Source of the DNA: an uncultured Hyphomonas sp.
GTDB taxonomy: Bacteria > Pseudomonadota > Alphaproteobacteria > Caulobacterales > Hyphomonadaceae
DNA length: 64,000 nt
NCBI GenBank assembly: GCA_964350465.1
Contig: CAYGKE010000004.1
Span: 20,616-84,615, forward strand
Reading direction: 5' to 3'
Under the pieces are notes generated by a model that saw nothing but the letters and a program-made list of their open reading frames with translations, made no database searches and was not told the origin of the DNA. This document shows, piece by piece, positions 6,521 through 35,759 of the stretch (the first letter of the stretch is position 1; each line of letters begins with the position of its first letter). The translations under genes were made by a program, and so were the position numbers.

Positions 6521-6535
6521 GGGCGCGGATTCCTG

Positions 6536-6564
6536 TTGACCTCTGCTTATACGCGCCCTAATTT
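6536..6564 (+). promoter_or_regulatory. Putative sigma70 promoter of the CitE-MaoC operon
   Basis: TTGACC-17 nt-TAATTT; the -10 overlaps operator B. Confidence 0.55.
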
Positions 6565-6576
6565 GTCCGGACAAAT
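6561..6576. promoter_or_regulatory. Operator B copy 1 (ATTTGTCCGGACAAAT, perfect palindrome)
   Basis: Perfect 16-bp palindrome 11 nt upstream of ATG 6588; resembles HutC-subfamily GntR boxes. Confidence 0.75.
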
Positions 6577-7419: not shown

Positions 7420-7941
7420 ATGGTCAAAACTGTAAAAGAGGTTGGTCCTAATCGCTACCGCGAGACCTTCGGGCGCTATTTCGAAGATTTCAAAGAAGGC
7501 GACATATACGAACACCGCCCCGGTAAGACGGTAACCGAGTATGACAATCACATGTTCACGTTAATGACGATGAACACACATCCGATGCATTTCGATGCCG
7601 AGTTCGCTGCCGCTAGTGAGTTCAAAAAGAACCTGGTCGTCTCGCCTTACACGCTGGCCTTGCTGATCGGCATGAGCGTCACCGATACATCCCAGAAAGC
7701 TATCGCCAATCTCGGTATGGACGAGGTGAAGTTCACCGCGCCTGTCTTTGCAGGGGATACGATCTATGGCGAGAGTGAAGTTCTCGGCAAACGCGAAAGC
7801 AAGAGCCGGCCAGGTCAAGGCATCGTGACCATCGTGACGCGCGGCTACAATCAGGACGGGGTGATGATCTGCACGTTCAAACGCAATATGCTGATCCCAT
7901 CAGCCGGTAACGCCGTCGAAGACAAGATAGACACATATTAG
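7420..7941 (+). CDS. MaoC-family (R)-specific enoyl-CoA hydratase, RipB/Ich-like
   Basis: GRYFEDF, DNHMFTLMTMNTHPMHFD, PVFAGDTIYGESEVL; ATG 7420 preferred over the track's 7309. Confidence 0.85.
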   Translation: MVKTVKEVGPNRYRETFGRYFEDFKEGDIYEHRPGKTVTEYDNHMFTLMTMNTHPMHFDAEFAAASEFKKNLVVSPYTLALLIGMSVTDTSQKAIANLGMDEVKFTAPVFAGDTIYGESEVLGKRESKSRPGQGIVTIVTRGYNQDGVMICTFKRNMLIPSAGNAVEDKIDTY

Positions 7942-7950
7942 GAGGCCATC

Positions 7951-9150
7951 ATGGCAGATAGTGCATACATGTCGGCAGAGGCCGCAGAAGAAGAAGCGAT
8001 CATGCTGGACGCCATCGACAAATGGCTCGAGCAGAAGGTTAAGCCGGTTGCGATGGAGCTGGAGCACGCCAACGAGTATCCGCATGCGCTGGTCGAGGAT
8101 ATGAAAGAGATGGGTCTGTTTGGCGCTCTGATCGATCCTGAATTCGGCGGCCTTGGCCTGACAGCATCGCTGTACGCCAAAATTGTCACGCGTATCTCCG
8201 AAGAGTGGATGAGCCTCACGGGTATCTTCAACTCGCATCTTATGATGGCGCAGATTGTTCAGCGTTTCGGGACGCAGAAACAGAAAGAACACTGGCTGCC
8301 GAAATTTGCGACCGGTGAAATTCGCGGCGGCCTCGCATTGACCGAACCCAATGCAGGGACCGACCTGCAAGCGCTGACCACCAAGGCAACTCGCGTGGGC
8401 GACAAATATGTTGTCGAAGGCGCCAAGACGTGGATTTCAAACGCGATTGAAGGCCATTGCGTTGCGTTGCTTTGCAAGACCGACACGAAAGCTGAACCGC
8501 GTTACAAAGGCATGTCGATCCTGATCACGCAGACCAAGATTCCTGAGACGCGCGAAGACCTGCCAGGTGTCAAGAATGGCAACAAGCTGGAGAAGCTTGG
8601 CTATAAGGGCATCGATAGCGGCGAGCTGATCTACGATAATTATGAATGCGATGCTGAGCTTTGCCTGGTCGGCGGCGAAGAAGGCAAGGGCTTCTTCATG
8701 GCGACCGGCGGCTTGGAGATTGGCCGGATCAATATTGCTGCGCGCTCGGTTGGGATTGCGCGCCGCGCGCTCAAGGAAAGTGTTGCCTATGCCCAGACGC
8801 GCAAGTCCATGGGCAAGCCGATCTGTGAGCATCAGGCGATCCAACTCAAGCTTGGTGAAATGGGGGCCAAGACCCGCGCCGCTGAACTACTCGTGGCAGA
8901 TGCGGCGCGCGCCTATGACACGGGCGAACGGATCGATATGGAGGCTGGCATGGCGAAGTATTTTGCCTCGGAGACCGCTGTCGAAGTCGCCACTGAAGCG
9001 ATGCGTATTCATGGCGGTTATGGCTACTCAAAGGAATATGTGATCGAGCGGCTCTACCGCGACGCCCCACTGATGTGCATTGGCGAAGGCACGAATGAGA
9101 TGCAGCGCATCATCATCTCGAAACAGCTGGTCAAGCGGAACCCGGTCTGA
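7951..9150 (+). CDS. Acyl-CoA dehydrogenase
   Basis: LTEPNAGTD, GAKTWISN, KLGYKG, RIHGGYGY, IGEGTNEMQR. Confidence 0.92.
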   Translation: MADSAYMSAEAAEEEAIMLDAIDKWLEQKVKPVAMELEHANEYPHALVEDMKEMGLFGALIDPEFGGLGLTASLYAKIVTRISEEWMSLTGIFNSHLMMAQIVQRFGTQKQKEHWLPKFATGEIRGGLALTEPNAGTDLQALTTKATRVGDKYVVEGAKTWISNAIEGHCVALLCKTDTKAEPRYKGMSILITQTKIPETREDLPGVKNGNKLEKLGYKGIDSGELIYDNYECDAELCLVGGEEGKGFFMATGGLEIGRINIAARSVGIARRALKESVAYAQTRKSMGKPICEHQAIQLKLGEMGAKTRAAELLVADAARAYDTGERIDMEAGMAKYFASETAVEVATEAMRIHGGYGYSKEYVIERLYRDAPLMCIGEGTNEMQRIIISKQLVKRNPV

Positions 9151-10292
9151 TGTCTGACCTGCCTCTCAAGGGCATCCGTATCCTGTCAGTGGAGCAGTAT
9201 GGCGCCGGACCGTATGGCACCATGCTGCTCGCTGATCTCGGTGCCGAGGTGATCAAGATCGAGGACCCGTCGCGCGGCGGCGATGTCTCGCGCTCCGTTG
9301 GACCATACATGCTGGGGGAGGGCGATAGTGAATTCTTCCAGACATTCTCCTATGGAAAAAAATCGGTCGCGCTTGATCTCAAGTCAGCGGAAGGTCGCGC
9401 GAGATTTGAGGCACTGGTGAAAACCGCAGATGCCGTTTCCAATAACTTACGCGGCGACCAACCGGGCAAGCTCGGCCTGACTTATGAAGCGCTGAAAGCG
9501 ATCAATCCGAAAATTGTCTGCGCGCATCTGTCGGCCTATGGCCGCAAGTCTGAACGCGCTGCCTGGCCGGGTTATGATTATCTGATGCAGGCGGAAGCTG
9601 GCTTCATGTCGGTGACAGGCGAGCCGGATGGACCGCCTGTTCGCTTTGGCCTGTCCATGGTCGACTTTCATACCGGCAGCCAGATGGCGACGGCATTGCT
9701 GGCCGGTATTCTTGGCGCGAGCCGGACCGGCGAAGGCTGCGATCTCGACGTCTGCCTGTTTGATACAGCGCTGCACCAGCTGTCTTATCCCGGCACCTGG
9801 TATCTCAATCAGGGCCATATTACCGGCCGCCTACCGCGCGGAAGTCATCCGGCGATCACGCCAAGCCAGACGGTCAAAACCAAGGATGGTTGGGGTCTGC
9901 TAATGTGCCAGACACCGAAATTCTGGTTGCTCTGGTGCGAGCTCGCAGGGGCGCAGCACCTCAATGAAGATAAGCGCTTTTCATCGATCCCGAAACGGCG
10001 TGAGAACCTCACAGCCCTCAGTGATGCGGTCGATGCAGTGATGATGGCGAAGACCACTGAAGAGTGGATGCAGGTGCTTGGCGGGCATGTGCCCTTCGCG
10101 CCAGTATTGGATGTCGCTGAGGCACTAGATAATCCGTATGTCGCAAGCGTTGAGATGACCTCGCGCGTCGATCACCCGAATACCGATACCGGCTTGCGCG
10201 CACTGTCTTCCCCTTTCCGCGTCAATGGCGATCGGCCAAAGCTCACACGCGCACCAAAGATGGGTGAACATTCAGATGAGTTGCTAAAATGA
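9150..10292 (+). CDS. Class III CoA-transferase (CaiB/BaiF)
   Basis: LADLGAEVIKIE, GKKSVALDLK, catalytic Asp in MVDFHTG. Confidence 0.9.
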   Translation: MSDLPLKGIRILSVEQYGAGPYGTMLLADLGAEVIKIEDPSRGGDVSRSVGPYMLGEGDSEFFQTFSYGKKSVALDLKSAEGRARFEALVKTADAVSNNLRGDQPGKLGLTYEALKAINPKIVCAHLSAYGRKSERAAWPGYDYLMQAEAGFMSVTGEPDGPPVRFGLSMVDFHTGSQMATALLAGILGASRTGEGCDLDVCLFDTALHQLSYPGTWYLNQGHITGRLPRGSHPAITPSQTVKTKDGWGLLMCQTPKFWLLWCELAGAQHLNEDKRFSSIPKRRENLTALSDAVDAVMMAKTTEEWMQVLGGHVPFAPVLDVAEALDNPYVASVEMTSRVDHPNTDTGLRALSSPFRVNGDRPKLTRAPKMGEHSDELLK

Positions 10293-12302: not shown

Positions 12303-13019
12303 CTAACCGCGGGTGCGGTCAAGGCGCATTTCATACGCGAAACGGCCAGCCGGGTGAAGGCTCTCTGAAAACAGGATGATTTTACCCTTGCTGTCGCGGT
12401 AACGACGGACCGTTCTGAGTGCGGGAAAGCCTTGATCGGTGCCTAGCCGTTTGGCTTGGCTGGCATTGAGTGCCACGGCTTCCATACGCTGCACGACGCG
12501 ATCTACGCCGACGCCATGCTTATCCTCGATCCACTCTGATATCGAGCCGGACAAACCCTCGATGGTCTCGCGGTCAGGGGAAAGATCACTTCGAATATAG
12601 ACGGCCGTGATAGCCTGAGGTGCCTGGTCCTTAACCCGTCTGAATCCGATCAGCTGCTTGTAAGCGCCGGTTAGGCCAAGCCGGTCCAGTGTTTCATCGT
12701 CAGCATCTTGCATGACCGTAACTTCGAACTGGGAGTCTCGGGCATATTGCAGGATCGAGTCGAAGTCGCCGATCGGTTGGGCGAAGGCCGGTGCAGATGC
12801 TGCGGAGACAACTGTTCCTGCGCCCCGGCGGCGCTCGATCCTGCCTTCTTCGACAAGGATCCTAAGTGCATCACGCGCGGTATGCCGAGACACCGAATAG
12901 GTCTCGCAAATCTCCATTTCCGTCGGCAGCGCGTCGCCCGGTTTCAGCTTGCCATTCACAATCTGAGCCCGGAACTTGTCAGCCATTTCCCGGTAGCGTG
13001 GTTGTTTCGGCTTAGCCAT
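12303..13019 (-). CDS. GntR family regulator (HutC subfamily, UTRA domain) #1
   Basis: PRY..MAD, LPTEMEI, VSRHTARDAL wHTH; C-terminal UTRA. Confidence 0.9.
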   Translation of the reverse strand: MAKPKQPRYREMADKFRAQIVNGKLKPGDALPTEMEICETYSVSRHTARDALRILVEEGRIERRRGAGTVVSAASAPAFAQPIGDFDSILQYARDSQFEVTVMQDADDETLDRLGLTGAYKQLIGFRRVKDQAPQAITAVYIRSDLSPDRETIEGLSGSISEWIEDKHGVGVDRVVQRMEAVALNASQAKRLGTDQGFPALRTVRRYRDSKGKIILFSESLHPAGRFAYEMRLDRTRG

Positions 13020-14346: not shown

Positions 14347-14362
14347 AAATGTCCGGACAAAT
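14347..14362. promoter_or_regulatory. Operator B copy 2 (AAATGTCCGGACAAAT)
   Basis: 14/16 match to copy 1, in the divergent gap between the CoA-transferase/GntR#1 operon and the prpD operon; next to a TAAAAT -10-like hexamer. Confidence 0.7.
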
Positions 14363-24163: not shown

Positions 24164-24193
24164 CCGATTTAAAAGATATATCATTTAAATCGG
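24164..24193. promoter_or_regulatory. Operator A copy 2 inside a 30-bp palindrome (CCGATTTAAAAGATATATCATTTAAATCGG)
   Basis: 14 of 15 pairs complementary; lies between the GntR#2 stop and the RBS of the membrane protein/FAD oxidoreductase/ALDH/crotonase operon. Confidence 0.8.
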
Positions 24194-24212: not shown

Positions 24213-25010
24213 CTATTTTTCGGTCTTCCAGTCTGTTTGAGCGGCATCATTACGGGTCAGGCGCATGTGATATTCGAAACGATCAGCGCGGTAATGGGCC
24301 GTAATGTCCTGAACCGGTCGTCCACTCTTGTCGCTCATGACGCGGTGGATGCGTAGCAAAGGTGACCCGGGCGCAACGCCGAGCGTTGCTGCAACCGCTG
24401 GTTCCGCTGCTGCCGCTGAAATGCTTTGTTCGGCTTCGACAGGTCCATGACCTGCCTTTTCCAGAAGCTTGATCAAGGACTGGCTTGTCAGCTCGGACTC
24501 CTCATAACCTTGAGCGACATCATAAGGTATATAGGTTATAAGATGAGAGAAGGGTTCGCCGTCCATCGACCTTACGCGAACGATCCTCTGCACACTTTCC
24601 CCGGCTTTCAGCTTCAGCGCGCCGCGAATGGCAGGACTGGCTGTGCCCACTGTGCAATCGAGCAGTTTAACGCTGGTCTCAACACCCATGCGCGTCAGTC
24701 CGTCGATCATTGTCTCAAAGCTGCCTTTGATCATCGACCCGTTGGCATCATAGGTGACGACGGTACCAATGCCCCGTTGACGTCTGACCAGACCGGCGAC
24801 AGCGAGTTCGTTCATCGCGCGCTTTACAGTGATCCGCGAAACGCCCAGCATTTGCGTTACGTCCTGCTCGGCTGGCAGATGATCACCATGCGCGAGGCCA
24901 CCATCGAGGATTTTCTTGCGCAGAATATCATAGATCTGCTGGTATAGCGGCGTTCCTGATTTCTCGTCGATCTGGCTGGGTTTGAGTTTCAGCATGGGAG
25001 TCCGGGCCAT
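24213..25010 (-). CDS. GntR family regulator (HutC subfamily, UTRA domain) #2
   Basis: PLYQQI, LPAEQDV, VSRITVKRAM; C-terminal UTRA ending YRADRFEY. Confidence 0.9.
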   Translation of the reverse strand: MARTPMLKLKPSQIDEKSGTPLYQQIYDILRKKILDGGLAHGDHLPAEQDVTQMLGVSRITVKRAMNELAVAGLVRRQRGIGTVVTYDANGSMIKGSFETMIDGLTRMGVETSVKLLDCTVGTASPAIRGALKLKAGESVQRIVRVRSMDGEPFSHLITYIPYDVAQGYEESELTSQSLIKLLEKAGHGPVEAEQSISAAAAEPAVAATLGVAPGSPLLRIHRVMSDKSGRPVQDITAHYRADRFEYHMRLTRNDAAQTDWKTEK

Positions 25011-28482: not shown

Positions 28483-29177
28483 CAGCCCTGATACCTCGCA
28501 ATCGCCTCATGTACCTCGCTGACCGGCACAACGTCGGCATATTTGATCAGCAAGTCGGTCAGGTTCGCAAAGTGATAGCTCTCATGCTTGTCGGCGACGC
28601 ATTCCTCCGGGACGATGGTGCGGTAGCCATAACTTAAACTATCAACCGCAGTAGCGCGCACGCATCCTGACGTTGAGCCGCCGGTAACAACAACCGTGTC
28701 GACCTTGTGCCATGTCAGGAAACTGTTGAGCGGCGTTTCAAAGAAAGCGGACGGCATACGTTTGGTGTAGACCGCATCCACAGCCGGATCGATGGTCAAA
28801 CGATCATCAAACGCGGTGCGCTCTGAGCCATATTTGATATTCTGCAGGCTGTCCGGCGTATCCGTTCGCGTGCCCCAGACGCCGGCATCAGCGGCATTGT
28901 CCATATAGGCAACATGCGTCCAGATCACTGGCAGACCTTTTGAACGTGCGGCGTTTGAGATGGCATCAATATGCTCCATCTGACGAGGGTCCGTGATGTA
29001 GGCGGTCTTGTAGAGATCAGGCCGTGTGTACGCTTTTTGCGGGTCAACATTCACGATAGCGAGCTTGTCGCCAAACCCGAACCGCGCGCGCATAGGGTTG
29101 GAGCGAACCTCTTCGAATATCTCACGCGCTGTTTTGTCTGAGGTTACCATGGTCGGTTGGGACATATCGTGGGTCAT
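28482..29177 (-). CDS. Isochorismatase/cysteine hydrolase (maleamate amidohydrolase / N-carbamoylsarcosine amidase-like)
   Basis: Asp-Lys-Cys triad: VNVDPQ, TKRMPSAFF, STSGCVRATAVD. Confidence 0.88.
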   Translation of the reverse strand: MTHDMSQPTMVTSDKTAREIFEEVRSNPMRARFGFGDKLAIVNVDPQKAYTRPDLYKTAYITDPRQMEHIDAISNAARSKGLPVIWTHVAYMDNAADAGVWGTRTDTPDSLQNIKYGSERTAFDDRLTIDPAVDAVYTKRMPSAFFETPLNSFLTWHKVDTVVVTGGSTSGCVRATAVDSLSYGYRTIVPEECVADKHESYHFANLTDLLIKYADVVPVSEVHEAIARYQG

Positions 29178-29208
29178 AGGAATTCCGCTTGCATTCTATC
29201 TCTCATTC

Positions 29209-29224
29209 AAATGATATATCTTTT
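29209..29224 (-). promoter_or_regulatory. Operator A copy 3 (AAATGATATATCTTTT on +)
   Basis: Exact reverse complement of copies 1 and 2, in a divergent intergenic region. Confidence 0.75.
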
Positions 29225-29253
29225 TGCGCAAGTCTAGCCAATTGGAGGAAGTT

Positions 29254-29688
29254 ATGAAGAGTTTTATTCTGGGTGCGATACTTGGCTTGGCAGGCGGGGT
29301 TGGTATTGCTGCTTGCGTTGGCGTTCAGCCGCAGATCGCGCAAGGACAAGAAACTGCGCCAGAACCACCAGCTTACATGATCGTGCTTGGTGAAGTGCAT
29401 GACCGCCCGGCCTTTATGGAAGGGTACGCAGCCAAGTTACCGCCCATCTACGAGCAATATGGGGGTCACTATATCGCAATTGGGGGAGGTCCAGGCATCG
29501 AAGTCCTCGAGGGTGACTATGCCCCGCCGAGCTATGTGATCAGTAAATGGGAGAAGGCGCAGGACGCGCGGGATTTCTGGAACAGCCCGGAATATGACGC
29601 GCTCAGGCGCGCACGCATCAACAATAATTGGGGCACATTCGACGTCCTATTGGTGAACGGTCTCCCAAACCCTGCTGCCGCTGAATGA
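29254..29688 (+). CDS. DUF1330 family protein with signal/lipoprotein peptide
   Basis: GGAGG-ATG 29254; GIAA-C; AYMIV, YGGHYI, VLEG, FWNSPEY..LR. Confidence 0.75.
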   Translation: MKSFILGAILGLAGGVGIAACVGVQPQIAQGQETAPEPPAYMIVLGEVHDRPAFMEGYAAKLPPIYEQYGGHYIAIGGGPGIEVLEGDYAPPSYVISKWEKAQDARDFWNSPEYDALRRARINNNWGTFDVLLVNGLPNPAAAE

Positions 29689-29732
29689 AGCGTGCTGCCT
29701 CAGGTGCGGCAGATTTACAACATTGCCGCATT

Positions 29733-29748
29733 AAATGACCGGACAAAG
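29733..29748. promoter_or_regulatory. Operator B copy 3 (AAATGACCGGACAAAG)
   Basis: One substitution in the TGTCCGGACA core; abuts the -35 of the receptor promoter. Confidence 0.6.
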
Positions 29749-29777
29749 TTGGACATCTCGCGCAAAAGGTATATCAT
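29749..29777 (+). promoter_or_regulatory. Putative sigma70 promoter of the TonB-dependent receptor
   Basis: TTGGAC-17 nt-TATCAT. Confidence 0.55.
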
Positions 29778-29779
29778 TT
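29764..29779 (+). promoter_or_regulatory. Operator A copy 4 (AAAAGGTATATCATTT)
   Basis: 15/16 match; covers the -10 hexamer. Confidence 0.68.
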
Positions 29780-29839
29780 GTGCGGGAGATAAAAAAAGCC
29801 CGGTCAAAAACAATGCCTAAATTTGAGGAGATTTTGGTG

Positions 29840-32002
29840 ATGAAAAAGAATTTGATAGGAACAGCGGCGGCTTTTGCCATCGCAGCCGCATGGTCTGCAC
29901 CAGCGGTCGCGCAAGACTCAGGCGAAACGGATGCGCGCCGCCTAGGCACAGTAACCGTCACATCGCAGCGCACCGAGGAAAATCTGCAGGATGTCCCGAT
30001 TGCCGTAACAGCGCTTTCGGCCGTCCAGCTCGAGGACAAGCAAGTCGCGGATATGCTTGATCTGCAATTTCAGGTCCCGAACATCAACCTTGCGACAAAT
30101 ACGGGTACAGCCAACGCGGCCCGTATTTTCCTGCGCGGTGTGGGTGAGGATGAAAGCCGCGGCGCGGTCGATCAGGCGGTCGGAATCTATGTGGACGGAG
30201 TTTATATCGGCCGTTCCGTAGGTTCACTCTTTGACGTGGTTGACCTGGAGCAGATCGAAGTCCTGCGTGGCCCACAAGGCACGCTTTATGGCCGCAACAC
30301 GATTGGCGGCGCGATCAAGCTGACATCGGTCAAGCCACAGTTCGAGAATAGTGGTGACATCCGCACAACGATTGGCGACAATGGCCGCTTCGACCTGCGC
30401 GGTACCGGAAACATGCAGCTTGGCGAGAATACTGCTTTCCGTGTCACTGGCCTACTGCGCGAGCGTGATGGCTTCCATACCGTCATTCCGAATGGCGGCA
30501 ATGCCGGTCAGGGCAAGGACGTTGGCCGCCTGCACATTGCGTCCTTCCGCGCCAGCCTCCTGCACAATTTCAATGAAGACTGGAGTATTTTCGTTGCGGC
30601 GGACTCAACGATTGATCGTTCTGATCCAATCCCTGATTCAGCAGCGCCGCCAAATGATGCCGACAATAACCTGTTCACCATCGAACCTCTGGGTGCCACC
30701 GTATGTCCGCCAGGAAATGGCCCTTTCACCCCGATTGGGTGTTTCACGGCCTATGACCAGCGGGCTAAAACGCAAGGCATTTCTGCGAATATCGAGGGCA
30801 ATCTGGGTAATTTCACCTTCAACTCTTTGACCGGATACCGGCAGTTGGATGATGAACTGTCGACCCGCATCGGCTTCCCGTTCACGCAGATGACCGATCA
30901 GGATCAGCTCAGCCAGGAATTCACCTTGGCGTCCAACCATGACGGTCCCTTCAATTATGTTGTCGGCTACTATTACTGGAGCGAAGACCTTCAGCTGGAC
31001 TCGGTCTTTGTCTTCCCGTTCACCCTGAACTCGTCGACTGATTCCCATGCGATCTTCGGGCAGGGTACATATGAAGTGAATGACCAGTTGTCTCTGACAG
31101 GCGGTCTGCGCTTCACATCCGAATCCAAGGACTTTGACGGCGAGGCACTCTTGTCCGGTTTGTCACGGACCGATTCAGCTGACTTCGATAATGTCAGCTA
31201 TACAATCGGTGCCGATTATCGCTTCAATGAGTCTGTTCTGGGCTATGCCAAGTTCTCAACTGGCTTCAAGTCGGGCGGCTGGTCGCCGGATGCGTTCAGT
31301 CCAGCAGCTGTGTTCCTGCCTGTCCGCGAAGAAACGCTCGATTCGTTTGAGATTGGCTTCAAGTCGGACCTGTTTGACGACAGTCTTCGCCTGAACGCCG
31401 CCTACTTCTTCAACGACTATACCGATCTTCAAATCGGGGCGACGGTGCCAGGTCTCGGCTTTACCCGGTTCAATGTTGAAGGTGTTGAGATCCAGGGTCT
31501 TGAATTCGAGGCAACCTTGCAAGTGACCGACAATTTCCAGCTGAACGGTAATCTTGGCATCCTCGACGGGGAGTATACCGATCTTAGCACGTCATCGGCG
31601 GGCGGCTTGACCAATAGCGGCGCCACGCCAGCTTGCGGCGGCGTTGTTTCAATCGATTGTGCGAAAACACTCAGCCTCAAGAACGCGCCGGAATACAAGG
31701 GCAGCATTGGTGCCCTATTCAGCGTGCCAATGGGCTCAGGTGAGCTGATCGCCTCGGGTGACATCAATTTCGAGGATGAGAGCTGGAGCCTTGTTGCCAA
31801 CAGCCCGGATCATGCCCTGATCGATGTGCCAACCATCATCAATGCCCGGATCAAGTATCAGTCCGATGCTGGCTGGTCGGCGGCAATCTGGGGCAAGAAT
31901 ATCGGTGATGAGGAATATTACCGTGCTTCCTCGGCTGGTTCCTTCACAGCCTATGCCTCCGAACCAGCAACCTTTGGTATTGATCTCGGCTACGAATTCT
32001 AA
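29840..32002 (+). CDS. TonB-dependent receptor
   Basis: Signal peptide, TonB-box-like TVTVTSQR, plug motifs (IFLRGVG, LRGPQGTLYGRN), C-terminal Phe; ATG 29840 after GAGGAG. Confidence 0.93.
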   Translation: MKKNLIGTAAAFAIAAAWSAPAVAQDSGETDARRLGTVTVTSQRTEENLQDVPIAVTALSAVQLEDKQVADMLDLQFQVPNINLATNTGTANAARIFLRGVGEDESRGAVDQAVGIYVDGVYIGRSVGSLFDVVDLEQIEVLRGPQGTLYGRNTIGGAIKLTSVKPQFENSGDIRTTIGDNGRFDLRGTGNMQLGENTAFRVTGLLRERDGFHTVIPNGGNAGQGKDVGRLHIASFRASLLHNFNEDWSIFVAADSTIDRSDPIPDSAAPPNDADNNLFTIEPLGATVCPPGNGPFTPIGCFTAYDQRAKTQGISANIEGNLGNFTFNSLTGYRQLDDELSTRIGFPFTQMTDQDQLSQEFTLASNHDGPFNYVVGYYYWSEDLQLDSVFVFPFTLNSSTDSHAIFGQGTYEVNDQLSLTGGLRFTSESKDFDGEALLSGLSRTDSADFDNVSYTIGADYRFNESVLGYAKFSTGFKSGGWSPDAFSPAAVFLPVREETLDSFEIGFKSDLFDDSLRLNAAYFFNDYTDLQIGATVPGLGFTRFNVEGVEIQGLEFEATLQVTDNFQLNGNLGILDGEYTDLSTSSAGGLTNSGATPACGGVVSIDCAKTLSLKNAPEYKGSIGALFSVPMGSGELIASGDINFEDESWSLVANSPDHALIDVPTIINARIKYQSDAGWSAAIWGKNIGDEEYYRASSAGSFTAYASEPATFGIDLGYEF

Positions 32003-32028: not shown

Positions 32029-32057
32029 AAGCCCCGGCCTCGCGCCGGGGCTTTTTT
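32029..32057 (+). terminator. Rho-independent terminator
   Basis: AAGCCCCGGC-CTCGC-GCCGGGGC-TTTTTT after the receptor stop. Confidence 0.85.
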
Positions 32058-32225: not shown

Positions 32226-33725
32226 ATGCGCCAGGTCAGTCACTTCATTAATGGTCAGATGGTTGCTGGCTCATCCGGCCGGTTCAGCGATATCTACAAC
32301 CCGAACACGGGTGAGGTTCAGGCGCAGGTTGCCCTTGCGACGGAGGCCGAAATGGCAGGCGCCATTGAGGCTGCCGAGGCAGCGTTTCCGGCCTGGGCGG
32401 CGACCAATCCACAGCGCCGCGCCCGCGTCATGTTCGAATTCAAGCGCCTGCTGGAAGCGCATATGGACGAATTGGCGGAGTTACTTTCCTCCGAGCACGG
32501 CAAGGTCATTGCAGACTCACGCGGCGATGTGCAGCGCGGGCTTGAAGTCGTCGAGTATGCCTGCGGCATGCCGCAGGTCCAGAAAGGCGAATATACAGGC
32601 GCTGCCGGGCCTGGCATTGATGTCTATTCGATGCGCCAGCCACTTGGGGTTTGTGCTGGGATCACACCTTTCAATTTTCCCGCGATGATCCCGATGTGGA
32701 TGTTCGCCATGGCGATTTCGGCCGGCAACACATTCATCCTCAAGCCATCCGAGAAAGACCCGTCCGTGCCGATGCGACTGGCGGAGCTGTTCCTTGAAGC
32801 TGGCGCGCCGGACGGCGTCCTGAATGTCGTCAATGGCGACAAGACCGCTGTCGATGCCATCCTGGATCATCCCTCGATCAAGGCGGTGAGTTTTGTCGGC
32901 TCGTCAGATATTGCGCAGTACATTTACAGCCGCGGCACCGCCAACGGAACACGTGTCCAGGCCATGGGCGGGGCCAAGAACCACGGCATCATCCTGCCGG
33001 ATGCGAACATGGATCAGGCGGTGAAAGATATTGTCGGCGCGGCCTATGGATCTGCTGGCGAGCGCTGCATGGCATTACCGGTCGTCGTGCCGGTTGGCCA
33101 GAAAACAGCCGATGAGTTTATCGAGCGGATTTCCGATGAGGCGCGCAAGCTCAAGGTCGGCATCTCGACGGATGCGGACGCCCATTATGGTCCGGTTGTC
33201 TCCGCCGCCCATAAGGCCAAGGTCGAGGACTATATCCGCATCGGGGCAGAAGAAGACGGCGCGGACCTGCTGATTGATGGCCGCGGTTTCGAACTGCAAG
33301 GCTATGAGAATGGTTTCTTCATCGGCCCAACCCTGTTCGACAATGTAAAGCCCGGTATGAAAACCTATGAGGAAGAGATCTTCGGCCCCGTGTTGCAGGT
33401 TGTGCGCGCCGAAAGTCTTGAAGAAGCCGCCGCGCTGCCGAGCAACCACCAGTACGGCAACGGCGTTGCGATCTTTACCCGCAATGGCCGCGCCGCTCGT
33501 GACTTTGCCGCTTCGGTGAATGTCGGCATGGTCGGCGTGAATGTGCCGATCCCGGTGCCAGTCAGCTACCATACGTTCGGGGGTTGGAAGCGCTCGGCCT
33601 TTGGCGATACAAATCAGTATGGCACTGAGGGGATGAAGTTCTGGACCAAGATCAAGACCGTCACCCAGCGCTGGCCCGAAGGCGATATCGGCGACCAGGC
33701 CTTCATCATTCCAACCATGGGGTAG
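32226..33725 (+). CDS. mmsA: CoA-acylating methylmalonate-semialdehyde dehydrogenase
   Basis: ITPFNFPAMIPMW, AMGGAKNH, GSAGERCMA, EEIFGP. Confidence 0.93.
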   Translation: MRQVSHFINGQMVAGSSGRFSDIYNPNTGEVQAQVALATEAEMAGAIEAAEAAFPAWAATNPQRRARVMFEFKRLLEAHMDELAELLSSEHGKVIADSRGDVQRGLEVVEYACGMPQVQKGEYTGAAGPGIDVYSMRQPLGVCAGITPFNFPAMIPMWMFAMAISAGNTFILKPSEKDPSVPMRLAELFLEAGAPDGVLNVVNGDKTAVDAILDHPSIKAVSFVGSSDIAQYIYSRGTANGTRVQAMGGAKNHGIILPDANMDQAVKDIVGAAYGSAGERCMALPVVVPVGQKTADEFIERISDEARKLKVGISTDADAHYGPVVSAAHKAKVEDYIRIGAEEDGADLLIDGRGFELQGYENGFFIGPTLFDNVKPGMKTYEEEIFGPVLQVVRAESLEEAAALPSNHQYGNGVAIFTRNGRAARDFAASVNVGMVGVNVPIPVPVSYHTFGGWKRSAFGDTNQYGTEGMKFWTKIKTVTQRWPEGDIGDQAFIIPTMG

Positions 33726-33728
33726 GCC

Positions 33729-34865
33729 ATGCAGCTTAGCGAAGAACAGACCATGATTGCCGACATGGCGTCGGCTTTCTCAAAGGATCGCCTCCGACCC
33801 AATGCATCGGCCTGGGAGCGCGAGGAACGGCTTGACCGCGATACGCTGAAGGCCCTGGCCGAGCTTGGCTTTGGCGGCATCTATACGGGCGAAGAGCATG
33901 GCGGCTCCGGCCTTGGTCGGCTGGACGCTGTGCTGATTTTCGAACAGCTTTCGAAAGGCTGTGTCAGTCACGCCTCCTTCCTGTCGATCCACAATATGGC
34001 GACCTGGATGGTAGACCGGTTCGGCGATGCTGAGCTTCGCGCGAAATACATCCCGCAGCTCACCCGCGCTGACCTGATTGCCTCCTATTGCCTGACCGAG
34101 CCGGGCGCAGGGTCAGACGCTGCCAGCCTCAAGACCTCGGCCACTGCTGACGGCAATTCGCATTATGTCCTGAACGGTGCCAAGGCTTTCATTTCCGGCG
34201 GCGGCTTTTCTGATCTCTATCTTGTCATGGCGCGCACGTCGGATGATGGTGCGCGCGGCGTATCGGCATTTCTGGTCGAGAATGGCACACCGGGTCTCTC
34301 CTTTGGCAAGAAAGAAGAGAAGATGGGCTGGCGTGCCCAGCCGACCACGATTGTGAATTTCGATGAATGCCGCATCCCGGCGGAAAACCGCATTGGTCCT
34401 GTTGGCGAGGGTTTCAAATACGCTATGGCTGGGCTGGATGGCGGACGGCTTAACATTGCCGCCTGCTCGCTTGGCGGGGCACAGGACGCGATGGACCGCG
34501 CCATGGCCTATGCTGACGAGCGCAAACAATTTGGCAAATCTATCTCAGCCTTCCAGGCGACCCAGTTCAAGCTTGCCGATATGGAAATCGAGCTACAGGC
34601 TGCCCGCGCGCTGCTCTATACAGCTGCGACGCGCCTCGATCAGAAAGCCTCTGATGCCACAAAAATGTGCGCGGCGGCCAAGCGTTTCGTCACCGATACC
34701 GGGTTCAAGGTGGCCAATGATGCGCTGCAGATTCATGGCGGCTATGGCTACCTCGCCGACTATGAAGTCGAGCGTATCGTGCGCGACCTCCGCGTGCACC
34801 AGATCCTTGAGGGCACCAATGAGATCATGCGTGTCATCGTCTCGCGCGAACTGATGAAAGGCTAG
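33729..34865 (+). CDS. Acyl-CoA dehydrogenase (isobutyryl-CoA dehydrogenase type)
   Basis: YCLTEPGAGSDAA, QIHGGYGY, QILEGTNEIMR; between mmsA and mmsB. Confidence 0.88.
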   Translation: MQLSEEQTMIADMASAFSKDRLRPNASAWEREERLDRDTLKALAELGFGGIYTGEEHGGSGLGRLDAVLIFEQLSKGCVSHASFLSIHNMATWMVDRFGDAELRAKYIPQLTRADLIASYCLTEPGAGSDAASLKTSATADGNSHYVLNGAKAFISGGGFSDLYLVMARTSDDGARGVSAFLVENGTPGLSFGKKEEKMGWRAQPTTIVNFDECRIPAENRIGPVGEGFKYAMAGLDGGRLNIAACSLGGAQDAMDRAMAYADERKQFGKSISAFQATQFKLADMEIELQAARALLYTAATRLDQKASDATKMCAAAKRFVTDTGFKVANDALQIHGGYGYLADYEVERIVRDLRVHQILEGTNEIMRVIVSRELMKG

Positions 34866-34868
34866 GCC

Positions 34869-35759
34869 ATGACAAAGATCGCATTCATCGGCCTTGGTAA
34901 TATGGGCAGCGGCATGTGCGCGAACCTCGTCAAGGCTGGCCATTCGGTGCGCGCGTTTGACCTGAACCCGGAGGCGGTGAAGCAGGCAGAAAGTGTCGGC
35001 GCCAGGGGCGCGGGCAGTCTTGGCGATGCCGTCCGGGAGGCTGATGTGATCGTCACCATGCTGCCTGCGGGCAAGCACGTCCTGTCAGTCTATTTCGGTA
35101 ATCAGGGTGTCGCGGCTGAGGCCAAGCCCGGTGCACTATTCCTCGATTGCTCAACCATTGCCGTTGAAGATGCCCGCGCGGCTGCCAAACAGGCCGAGCA
35201 AGCTGGGTTCACCATGGTCGACGCCCCGGTCTCAGGCGGCACGGCGGCGGCATCTGCCGGGACGCTGACCTTCATGGTCGGCGGCACCAGCGATGGCTTT
35301 GCCCGCGCCAAGCCTGTGCTGGAAGCGATGGGCAAGACGATTGTTCATGCTGGCGCATCCGGCAATGGGCAGGTCGCCAAGATCGCCAATAATATGCTGC
35401 TCGGCATCTCGATGATTGCGACCTGCGAGGCCTTCAATCTGGCCGAGAAGCTCGGACTTGATGCCCAGACTTTTTTCGACATCTCGTCCAGGGCCTCCGG
35501 CCAGAACTGGTCCATGACATCCTATTGTCCGGCGCCCGGGCCTGTACCGGCTGCGCCTTCCAACAATGACTATAAGGCCGGGTTTGCCGTTGACATGATG
35601 CTCAAGGATTTACGGCTCGCCGCAGATGCTGCAGACAGCGCTGGCGCAGAGACGGTATTCGGCGACAAGGCAAGAGATATCTATGCCGCGCTCAGCAAGG
35701 ACGGTTTCGGCGCCCTTGATTTTTCCGGCGTGATGAAGCGCGTGAAAGCTGAGATCTAG
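34869..35759 (+). CDS. mmsB: 3-hydroxyisobutyrate dehydrogenase
   Basis: IAFIGLGNMG, DAPVSGG, AKIANNM, MMLKDL. Confidence 0.92.
   Translation: MTKIAFIGLGNMGSGMCANLVKAGHSVRAFDLNPEAVKQAESVGARGAGSLGDAVREADVIVTMLPAGKHVLSVYFGNQGVAAEAKPGALFLDCSTIAVEDARAAAKQAEQAGFTMVDAPVSGGTAAASAGTLTFMVGGTSDGFARAKPVLEAMGKTIVHAGASGNGQVAKIANNMLLGISMIATCEAFNLAEKLGLDAQTFFDISSRASGQNWSMTSYCPAPGPVPAAPSNNDYKAGFAVDMMLKDLRLAADAADSAGAETVFGDKARDIYAALSKDGFGALDFSGVMKRVKAEI

Follow-up and report, generated by a model that had tools for sequence, protein, structure and literature searches.

Two distinct predicted operators, assigned to two different GntR/HutC regulators, are located in one core promoter region upstream of TBDR1, a TonB-dependent receptor gene. 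Operator B (29733-29748) is the predicted site of GntR1 and operator A (29764-29779) is the predicted site of GntR2. Positions without a contig name refer to the window, the whole stretch of 64,000 nucleotides that was analyzed. Among 34 further loci in other genomes, which span five genera, 32 have the B-then-A pair upstream of the receptor orthologue, a count that overstates the independent support because orthologous promoters share ancestry. With moderate confidence, we consider double negative control probable, in which either bound dimer would block RNA polymerase and full expression of the receptor would need both effectors.

The receptor gene and its upstream gap

TBDR1 (29840-32002, plus strand) starts with the ATG at 29840 and encodes a 720-aa protein with the Pfam domains Plug and TonB_dep_Rec_b-barrel, for which no NCBIfam equivalog was matched. 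It is the predicted target of the regulation. A Shine-Dalgarno sequence, GAGGAG (29825-29830, plus strand), lies shortly upstream of the ATG within TTTGAGGAG. This stretch is the same in 12 of 13 aligned orthologues, and T.TGAGGA is shared by all 13.

The upstream neighbor of TBDR1 is a DUF1330 gene with its stop codon at 29688, and the gap between the two genes is 151 bp. In the gap, AAATGACCGGACAAAG (operator B) is followed by a 15-nt spacer, TTGGACATCTCGCGC, and then by AAAAGGTATATCATTT (operator A). The two operators, 15 bp apart, span 107 to 61 bp upstream of the receptor start codon. The sequence-only reading had described both operators and the hexamers TTGGAC and TATCAT, separated by 17 nt. 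Its coordinates and sequences are exact, the two hexamers being at 29749-29754 and 29772-29777, respectively.

A terminator-like hairpin is present downstream of TBDR1 at 32036-32052. Genes for aldehyde dehydrogenase, acyl-CoA dehydrogenase, and 3-hydroxyisobutyrate dehydrogenase, a set of the valine or methylmalonate-semialdehyde type, are found past the hairpin at 32226-35759. They are missing from the position after the receptor gene in all 34 relatives checked. Based on the hairpin and the non-syntenic downstream genes, TBDR1 is considered to be the last gene of its unit and probably the only one. A riboswitch or leader RNA in the 5' region was rejected, as the Rfam scan of 29100-30000 gave no significant match, nothing but one sub-threshold miRNA match.

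On the upstream side, the fold between the DUF1330 gene and the receptor gene is no better than those of shuffled sequences (z = -0.87), and the scan of the plus strand found no terminator there. Since there is no convincing terminator after the DUF1330 gene, the receptor gene may not be transcribed independently, and read-through from the A-controlled DUF1330 promoter is possible. The two operators could then work on different transcripts, B on those from an upstream promoter or from DUF1330 read-through and A on those from the proximal promoter, with an additive or hierarchical output. The DUF1330 gene is ahead of the receptor gene in most loci; the gene order isochorismatase, DUF1330 (24 of 35 loci), and receptor is kept in 33 of 35 loci. 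Twelve bp ahead of B there is a conserved -35-like hexamer (TTGTCA, TTGCAA, or TTACAA). However, there is no -10-like hexamer 16-19 bp past it. The matching position is occupied by ACCGGA inside B, which makes an upstream promoter from the conserved TTGTCA/TTACAA hexamer unlikely. Any upstream transcript would still need to pass the repressor bound at A. Moreover, at eight of the 35 loci the DUF1330 gene is absent and the isochorismatase gene is divergent, yet all eight retain the proximal A and only one, L101 in genome G225, lacks B. Separate transcripts for the two operators are thus quite unlikely.

Two regulators and the motifs they are predicted to read

The genes for GntR1 (12303-13019) and GntR2 (24213-25010) are both on the minus strand. 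Each protein has an N-terminal GntR winged helix-turn-helix (wHTH) domain and a C-terminal UTRA domain of the chorismate-lyase fold in Pfam, the composition of the GntR/HutC subfamily. GntR1 shows full-length homology to NagR/YvoA and DasR, and GntR2 to 2ra5, DasR, and NagR. The two regulators are 30% identical to each other, and their recognition helices differ. Neither is equivalent to a named member by NCBIfam; their best scores are 89 and 126 bits against the cut-offs of 220 (HutC) and 157 (PhnF), and neither reaches any cut-off.

The known consensus of HutC operators is a palindrome of ~16 bp with a GT-N4-AC core, NyGTMTAKACNy (PMC4494728). Operator B has the structure (A/T)3-TGTCCGGACA-(A/T)3, that is, GT-CCGG-AC, and is a 16-bp palindrome of the HutC type. 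Operator A is a 14/16 palindrome (AAAWGATATATCWTTT) with an A/T-rich center and the length of HutC operators, and its core, GA-TATA-TC, differs from their GT...AC.

The core of B, TGWCCGGWCA, has four exact matches in the window, at 6564, 14350, 29736, and 57898. The first three are intergenic, and the last was taken as a chance match because it lies within an ORF. In the whole genome, the 16-mer of B has four exact and three one-mismatch matches, against zero and two for the control. B sites precede the lyase operon, etfB, and a hydroxylase-like gene, in addition to the receptor gene, and one is present in the divergent gap between gntR1 and MmgE/PrpD. The site at the lyase operon, a perfect palindrome ATTTGTCCGGACAAAT (6561-6576), covers the -10 of this operon, which encodes lyase, hydratase, acyl-CoA dehydrogenase, and CoA-transferase. 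The site at 14347-14362 separates the operon for acetyl-CoA hydrolase/transferase and gntR1 from the operon for MmgE/PrpD, ligase, and amidase.

The site at 14347-14362 overlaps the ATG at 14349 that opens the MmgE/PrpD frame, and a relative shares the encoded residues MSGQ. Either operator B is within the coding start, or the true start of MmgE/PrpD is the ATG at 14362. Another perfect B palindrome, ATATGTCCGGACATAT, was found at C6:62533-62548 (L094), far from the island; an electron-transfer flavoprotein gene (Pfam ETF) follows ~140 bp downstream. This location would fit the control of the acyl-CoA dehydrogenase branch by GntR1.

Motif A, with up to three mismatches, has four sites in the window (2133, 24171, 29209, and 29764), against 0.14 expected, and all four are intergenic. 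The site at 2133-2148 is upstream of an operon for HapK-like, SDR, deacetylase, and glyoxalase proteins. The site at 24171-24186, just beyond the stop codon of gntR2, is upstream of an operon for membrane protein, FAD oxidase, aldehyde dehydrogenase, and enoyl-CoA hydratase. The site at 29209-29224 lies between the isochorismatase operon, whose last gene is gntR2, and the divergent DUF1330 gene. In the whole genome (3.28 Mb), there are 13 exact matches of AAAWGRTATATCWWTT and one with one mismatch, while the reversed control has no exact match and one with one mismatch. Ten of the genomic A sites are on the island contig, six of them upstream of the window. In the island, A sites precede an aconitase-like gene, divergent genes for HMGL-like protein and CoA transferase, a DUF1838 gene, and the HapK, FAD-oxidase, and isochorismatase operons. 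The sites outside the island (C55:6140, C106:1240, and C25:29406; loci L091, L092, and L090) are upstream of a paralogous CN-hydrolase gene, upstream of a glyoxalase-fold gene, and between the divergent genes for a third TonB-dependent receptor and an AraC-family regulator.

Relatives show the same association of the motifs with the island. In each of four complete relatives with the island, 10-12 A sites and 3-4 B sites cluster within it, against 0-1 for controls, and no A site was seen in a relative that lacks the island. The view of A and B as genuine, conserved motifs near the receptor promoter is borne out by their over-representation and their retention across genera.

The assignment of each motif to a regulator is based on gene neighborhoods. 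gntR1 is translationally coupled to the acetyl-CoA hydrolase/transferase gene, and B is at the promoter of that operon. gntR2 closes the isochorismatase operon, with one A at the operon promoter (29209) and another past its own stop codon (24171). Co-localization of regulators and motifs was surveyed across 60 relatives. The 17 further GntR1 homologue loci consist of 13 orthologues with 73-77% identity and four homologues with 42-43% identity from another family. B was found at the operon promoter, ~1.35 kb upstream, in 16 of them (12 of the 13 orthologues and all four distant homologues), and A in none; the single locus without B is truncated at the edge of its contig. Conversely, all 14 further loci of GntR2 orthologues (72-77% identity) have an adjacent A, and none of them has B. 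GntR2 homologues with 45-48% identity carry a co-varying variant of A, AAATGATCTATCTTTA. In genome G225, in which the search for GntR1 homologues found none, the receptor promoter has A only. Because each motif co-localizes and co-varies with its regulator gene across two families, the predicted pairing of GntR1 with B and of GntR2 with A is well supported by comparison.

Conservation of the operator pair and the predicted core promoter

Receptor orthologues (62-72% identity) are present in 48 of the 262 genomes of the family, in eight genera. The receptor and GntR1 are found together in 45 genomes of the family, the receptor alone in three, GntR1 alone in six, and neither in ~208. Six of the nine assemblies with a single occurrence are less than 90% complete, and the genomes are related to each other, so these counts are descriptive and not a statistical test. 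They support that the two gene blocks travel together across the family.

All 17 loci from the same genus, including the one in this genome, keep B followed by A with a start-to-start offset of 31 bp. Thirteen of the 17 were used in the alignment. In these 13 promoters, TGACCGGACAAA of operator B and AAA.G.TATATCA.TT of operator A are invariant, while the spacer and the flanks drift. In other genera, the offset is 29 bp (g22), 30 bp (g29), or 33, 29, or 41-44 bp (g20). An A site is upstream of all 35 receptor orthologues examined, with one mismatch in L014, and a B site is retained upstream of orthologues in four genera. No single B-A geometry seems to be needed, as the offset ranges from 29 to 44 bp at these orthologues and is 52 or 67-68 bp at other receptors. 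Strict helical phasing of B and A was rejected on the same range, the 31-bp offset being fixed only within the genus. The offsets cluster loosely near whole helical turns, and the independent cases are too few for a claim of phasing.

Two variations were seen among the orthologous loci. In G031 (C1:541585-541650, L011), two tandem B sites 20 bp apart are followed by A upstream of the receptor gene. In the complete genome G010, the receptor orthologue (C1:2690954-2693122, L012) contains one in-frame TAG, either a pseudogene or possibly a sequencing error.

B is not universal. Receptors with 54% identity in two other families have A only, and one of them adjoins a GntR2-like gene with 37% identity. 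In the family itself, two genomes, G225 and G076, have A only at the receptor. G076 has a more distant GntR1 (51% identity), and a B site was found ~40 bp upstream of its gntR2 orthologue (C6:208612-208625, L126; gene 208663-209442). The sites in G076 indicate that its regulons would be coupled by a cascade rather than by convergence on the receptor.

These A-only receptors could suggest that A alone is functional and that the B-like sequence is a conserved relic or a part of an UP element or the -35 region. The receptor B also deviates from the palindromic consensus, with TGACC for TGTCC and a final G. Conservation argues against a relic: 13 genomes share twelve unchanged bases of B although the flanks drift, and B persists in four genera at shifting offsets. 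B is missing where GntR1 was not found (G225), and it recurs at two other receptor genes. A functionless B at the receptor is therefore highly improbable.

The sequence-only reading regarded the TBDR1 promoter as the only place where both motifs co-occur, which fails beyond the window. There are two A/B pairs within 150 bp in the whole genome, and more in relatives, and they are upstream of receptor genes. The second pair (C4:7545-7627) is outside the window, ~43 kb upstream, and precedes a receptor gene at 7674-9983 (769 aa, L040). It consists of B CGTTGTCCGGACAAAT and A AAATGGTATATCATTT, 67 bp apart, with an intervening TTGCCA or TTGTCA box that all five orthologues retain. Three of the four orthologues of this second receptor keep both sites at an offset of 67-68 bp. 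In the fourth (G018), B is decayed or lost, and two tandem A sites are present. A further pair of B and A, with an offset of 52 bp, was found in G010 upstream of another, third TonB-dependent receptor gene. Each catabolic operon examined in this genome, by comparison, has one motif only. From the distribution of sites, dual control looks like a general rule for the outer-membrane receptors of the island. The pair at the second receptor strengthens the idea of dual control while removing the uniqueness of TBDR1.

The consensus scan of 29100-29900 found one promoter-like site, TGGACA-16 nt-TATCAT, matching the consensus at 10 of 12 positions. The candidate -35, TGGACA (29750-29755, plus strand), starts one base after the end of operator B, and the candidate -10, TATCAT (29772-29777, plus strand), is inside operator A. 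The predicted transcription start is near 29784. The proposal that A covers the likely -10 and that B abuts the likely -35 stands in this predicted sigma-70-like frame, whereas the frame of TTGGAC with a 17-nt spacer was one base off. Only this genome and one relative have TTGGAC, and what is conserved is a T-x-G-x-x-A frame with a spacer of 16 bp. In the genus alignment, T and G at positions 1 and 3 of the hexamer 16 bp upstream of TATCAT are invariant. The -35 variants are TGGACA here and TCGCTA, TCGTCT, and TCGCCA elsewhere in the genus, and TTGCCA, TTGCTG, TTGTCT, or TTGATC in other genera. Most orthologues have TTGNNN or TCGNNN 16 bp upstream of TATCAT. A -35 scoring at least 3/6 at 16-18 bp is present in 31 of 34 orthologues, against 40% of random positions. 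Most orthologues have TATCAT as the -10; the rest have TATCAA, TATCTT, TACCAT, or TACCAA.

There are weak points in this frame. The -35 is poor in most orthologues of the same genus (TCGCTA, TCGTCT), and the -10 in three genomes, TATCAA, is missing the final T. The g20 loci with the 33-bp offset fit the promoter frame poorly. On balance, the architecture of A over the predicted -10 and B abutting the predicted -35 is plausible and moderately supported.

A -35 inside B, TTGACC or ATGACC, was rejected for TBDR1, as there is no conserved -10 at 16-19 bp. The spacing between this hexamer and A equals that of the TTGCCA box conserved at the second receptor.

The promoter of the lyase operon (window 6535-6576, loci L127-L132) is a useful reference promoter for the lineage. 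TTGACC-17-TAATTT is conserved there in seven genomes of three genera, an indication that canonical sigma-70 promoters are in use in the lineage. At this operon B covers the final four bases of the -10, the classical position of a repressor.

Proposed modes of control and comparison with known systems

Under the proposed double negative control, GntR2 bound at A would cover the -10 and part of the spacer and block the recognition of the -10. GntR1 bound at B would have a footprint expected to reach the -35 and block the docking of polymerase. GntR2 would control hydrolase and redox genes through A, with about 13-14 sites genome-wide, and GntR1 would control the itaconate-type CoA module, its own operon, and etfB through B. 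Both sites are combined only at the outer-membrane receptor genes of the island. The effector of GntR2 is presumably an early compound or intermediate, and that of GntR1 a late diacid or an intermediate at the CoA stage.

The position of B speaks against repression by both proteins. B is upstream of the -35, centered at about -43.5 here, at about -41.5 to -45.5 in other genera, at -64.5 in G010, and at -80 at the second receptor, ~36 bp further upstream than at TBDR1. Direct occlusion by B is less certain because activators also use such upstream positions. E. coli FadR, a member of the GntR family, represses fad from -10/+1 sites and activates fabA from a site at about -40. FadR is relevant to the upstream position of B; it differs in belonging to another subfamily with an FCD effector domain, and here there is no sign of activation. 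By analogy with FadR, GntR1 at B might activate the receptor promoter or aid RNA polymerase there while repressing the catabolic operons, and GntR2 at A would be the substrate-responsive repressor. B covers the -10 and the start at catabolic promoters, so GntR1 would have two types of position, and the poor -35 in most orthologues is what an activator-dependent promoter would show.

Such activation by GntR1 is unlikely. Characterized members of the HutC subfamily are overwhelmingly repressors (NagR, DasR: PMC4333415, PMC4918961), the -35 is decent unaided in this genome and G031, and offsets of 41-44 bp are off the usual spacing of activators. The second receptor of G018, which lost B and gained an adjacent second A, is a better fit to interchangeable repressor sites. 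If GntR1 were nevertheless an activator, it would act in two ways: a late, downstream intermediate would free it, turning the lower pathway (the CoA module) on and throttling import as feedback, while GntR2 would make import depend on the substrate. The outer-membrane step would then have its own flux governor, and a HutC-subfamily protein would be acting as an activator.

The operator pair ties two separately regulated halves of a large, uncharacterized catabolic island to common outer-membrane importers. One half consists of amide/imide hydrolases and redox enzymes, and the other is the itaconate-type CoA module. The pair is the best argument from the sequence that both halves serve one pathway, and they may share one imported substrate, as was proposed in the sequence-only reading. 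The compounds that free GntR2 and GntR1 from a 50-bp DNA would name the early and late intermediates of the pathway. About one in five genomes of this marine alphaproteobacterial family has the island, which makes an ecological relevance of the substrate likely.

The best structural homologues of GntR1 and GntR2 are NagR/YvoA of Bacillus subtilis and DasR of Streptomyces, which binds dre operators. They are dimeric wHTH and UTRA repressors that are released by effectors and bind 16-bp palindromes of the GT-N4-AC type at or near core promoters (PMC4333415, PMC4918961). They differ in motifs and regulons, and operator A here has GA-TATA-TC instead of GT...AC.

ExuR and UxuR of E. coli, which belong to the GntR/FadR subfamily, are similar to the system here in that two paralogous GntR-family regulators act on the promoters of one network. 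These repressors cross-regulate shared hexuronate promoters as well as their own genes (PMC9369180). ExuR and UxuR have similar operators and are proposed to form heterodimers, whereas the motif centers here are unrelated (CCGG and TATA) and the sites are 15 bp apart. Their effector domain is FCD; here it is UTRA, and each motif is co-localized only with its own regulator gene.

The closest analogue is the deo/tsx system of E. coli with DeoR and CytR, two repressors that respond to different metabolites in one catabolic network. The deo operon is under both cytR and deoR, and tsx is in the CytR regulon (PMC3454398). As in the system here, the shared targets include an outer-membrane uptake channel, and each repressor also has its own targets. 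The systems also differ. DeoR and CytR come from different families, whereas GntR1 and GntR2 are both HutC-subfamily paralogues. CytR requires cAMP-CRP, and no CRP-like partner is evident here. DeoR is reported by Bremer et al. in J Bacteriol in 1988 to control a separate tsx promoter. tsx has two tandem promoters, one per repressor, whereas the two sites here flank apparently one promoter.

Two repressors on one promoter are already known, and convergence on shared catabolic and uptake genes is classical. What appears particular here, as judged from the predicted sites, is that HutC-subfamily paralogues with unrelated operators converge, and that they do so only at TonB-dependent receptor genes. 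The persistence of the arrangement over several genera and the large predicted regulon of about 13-14 A sites are also particular to this system.
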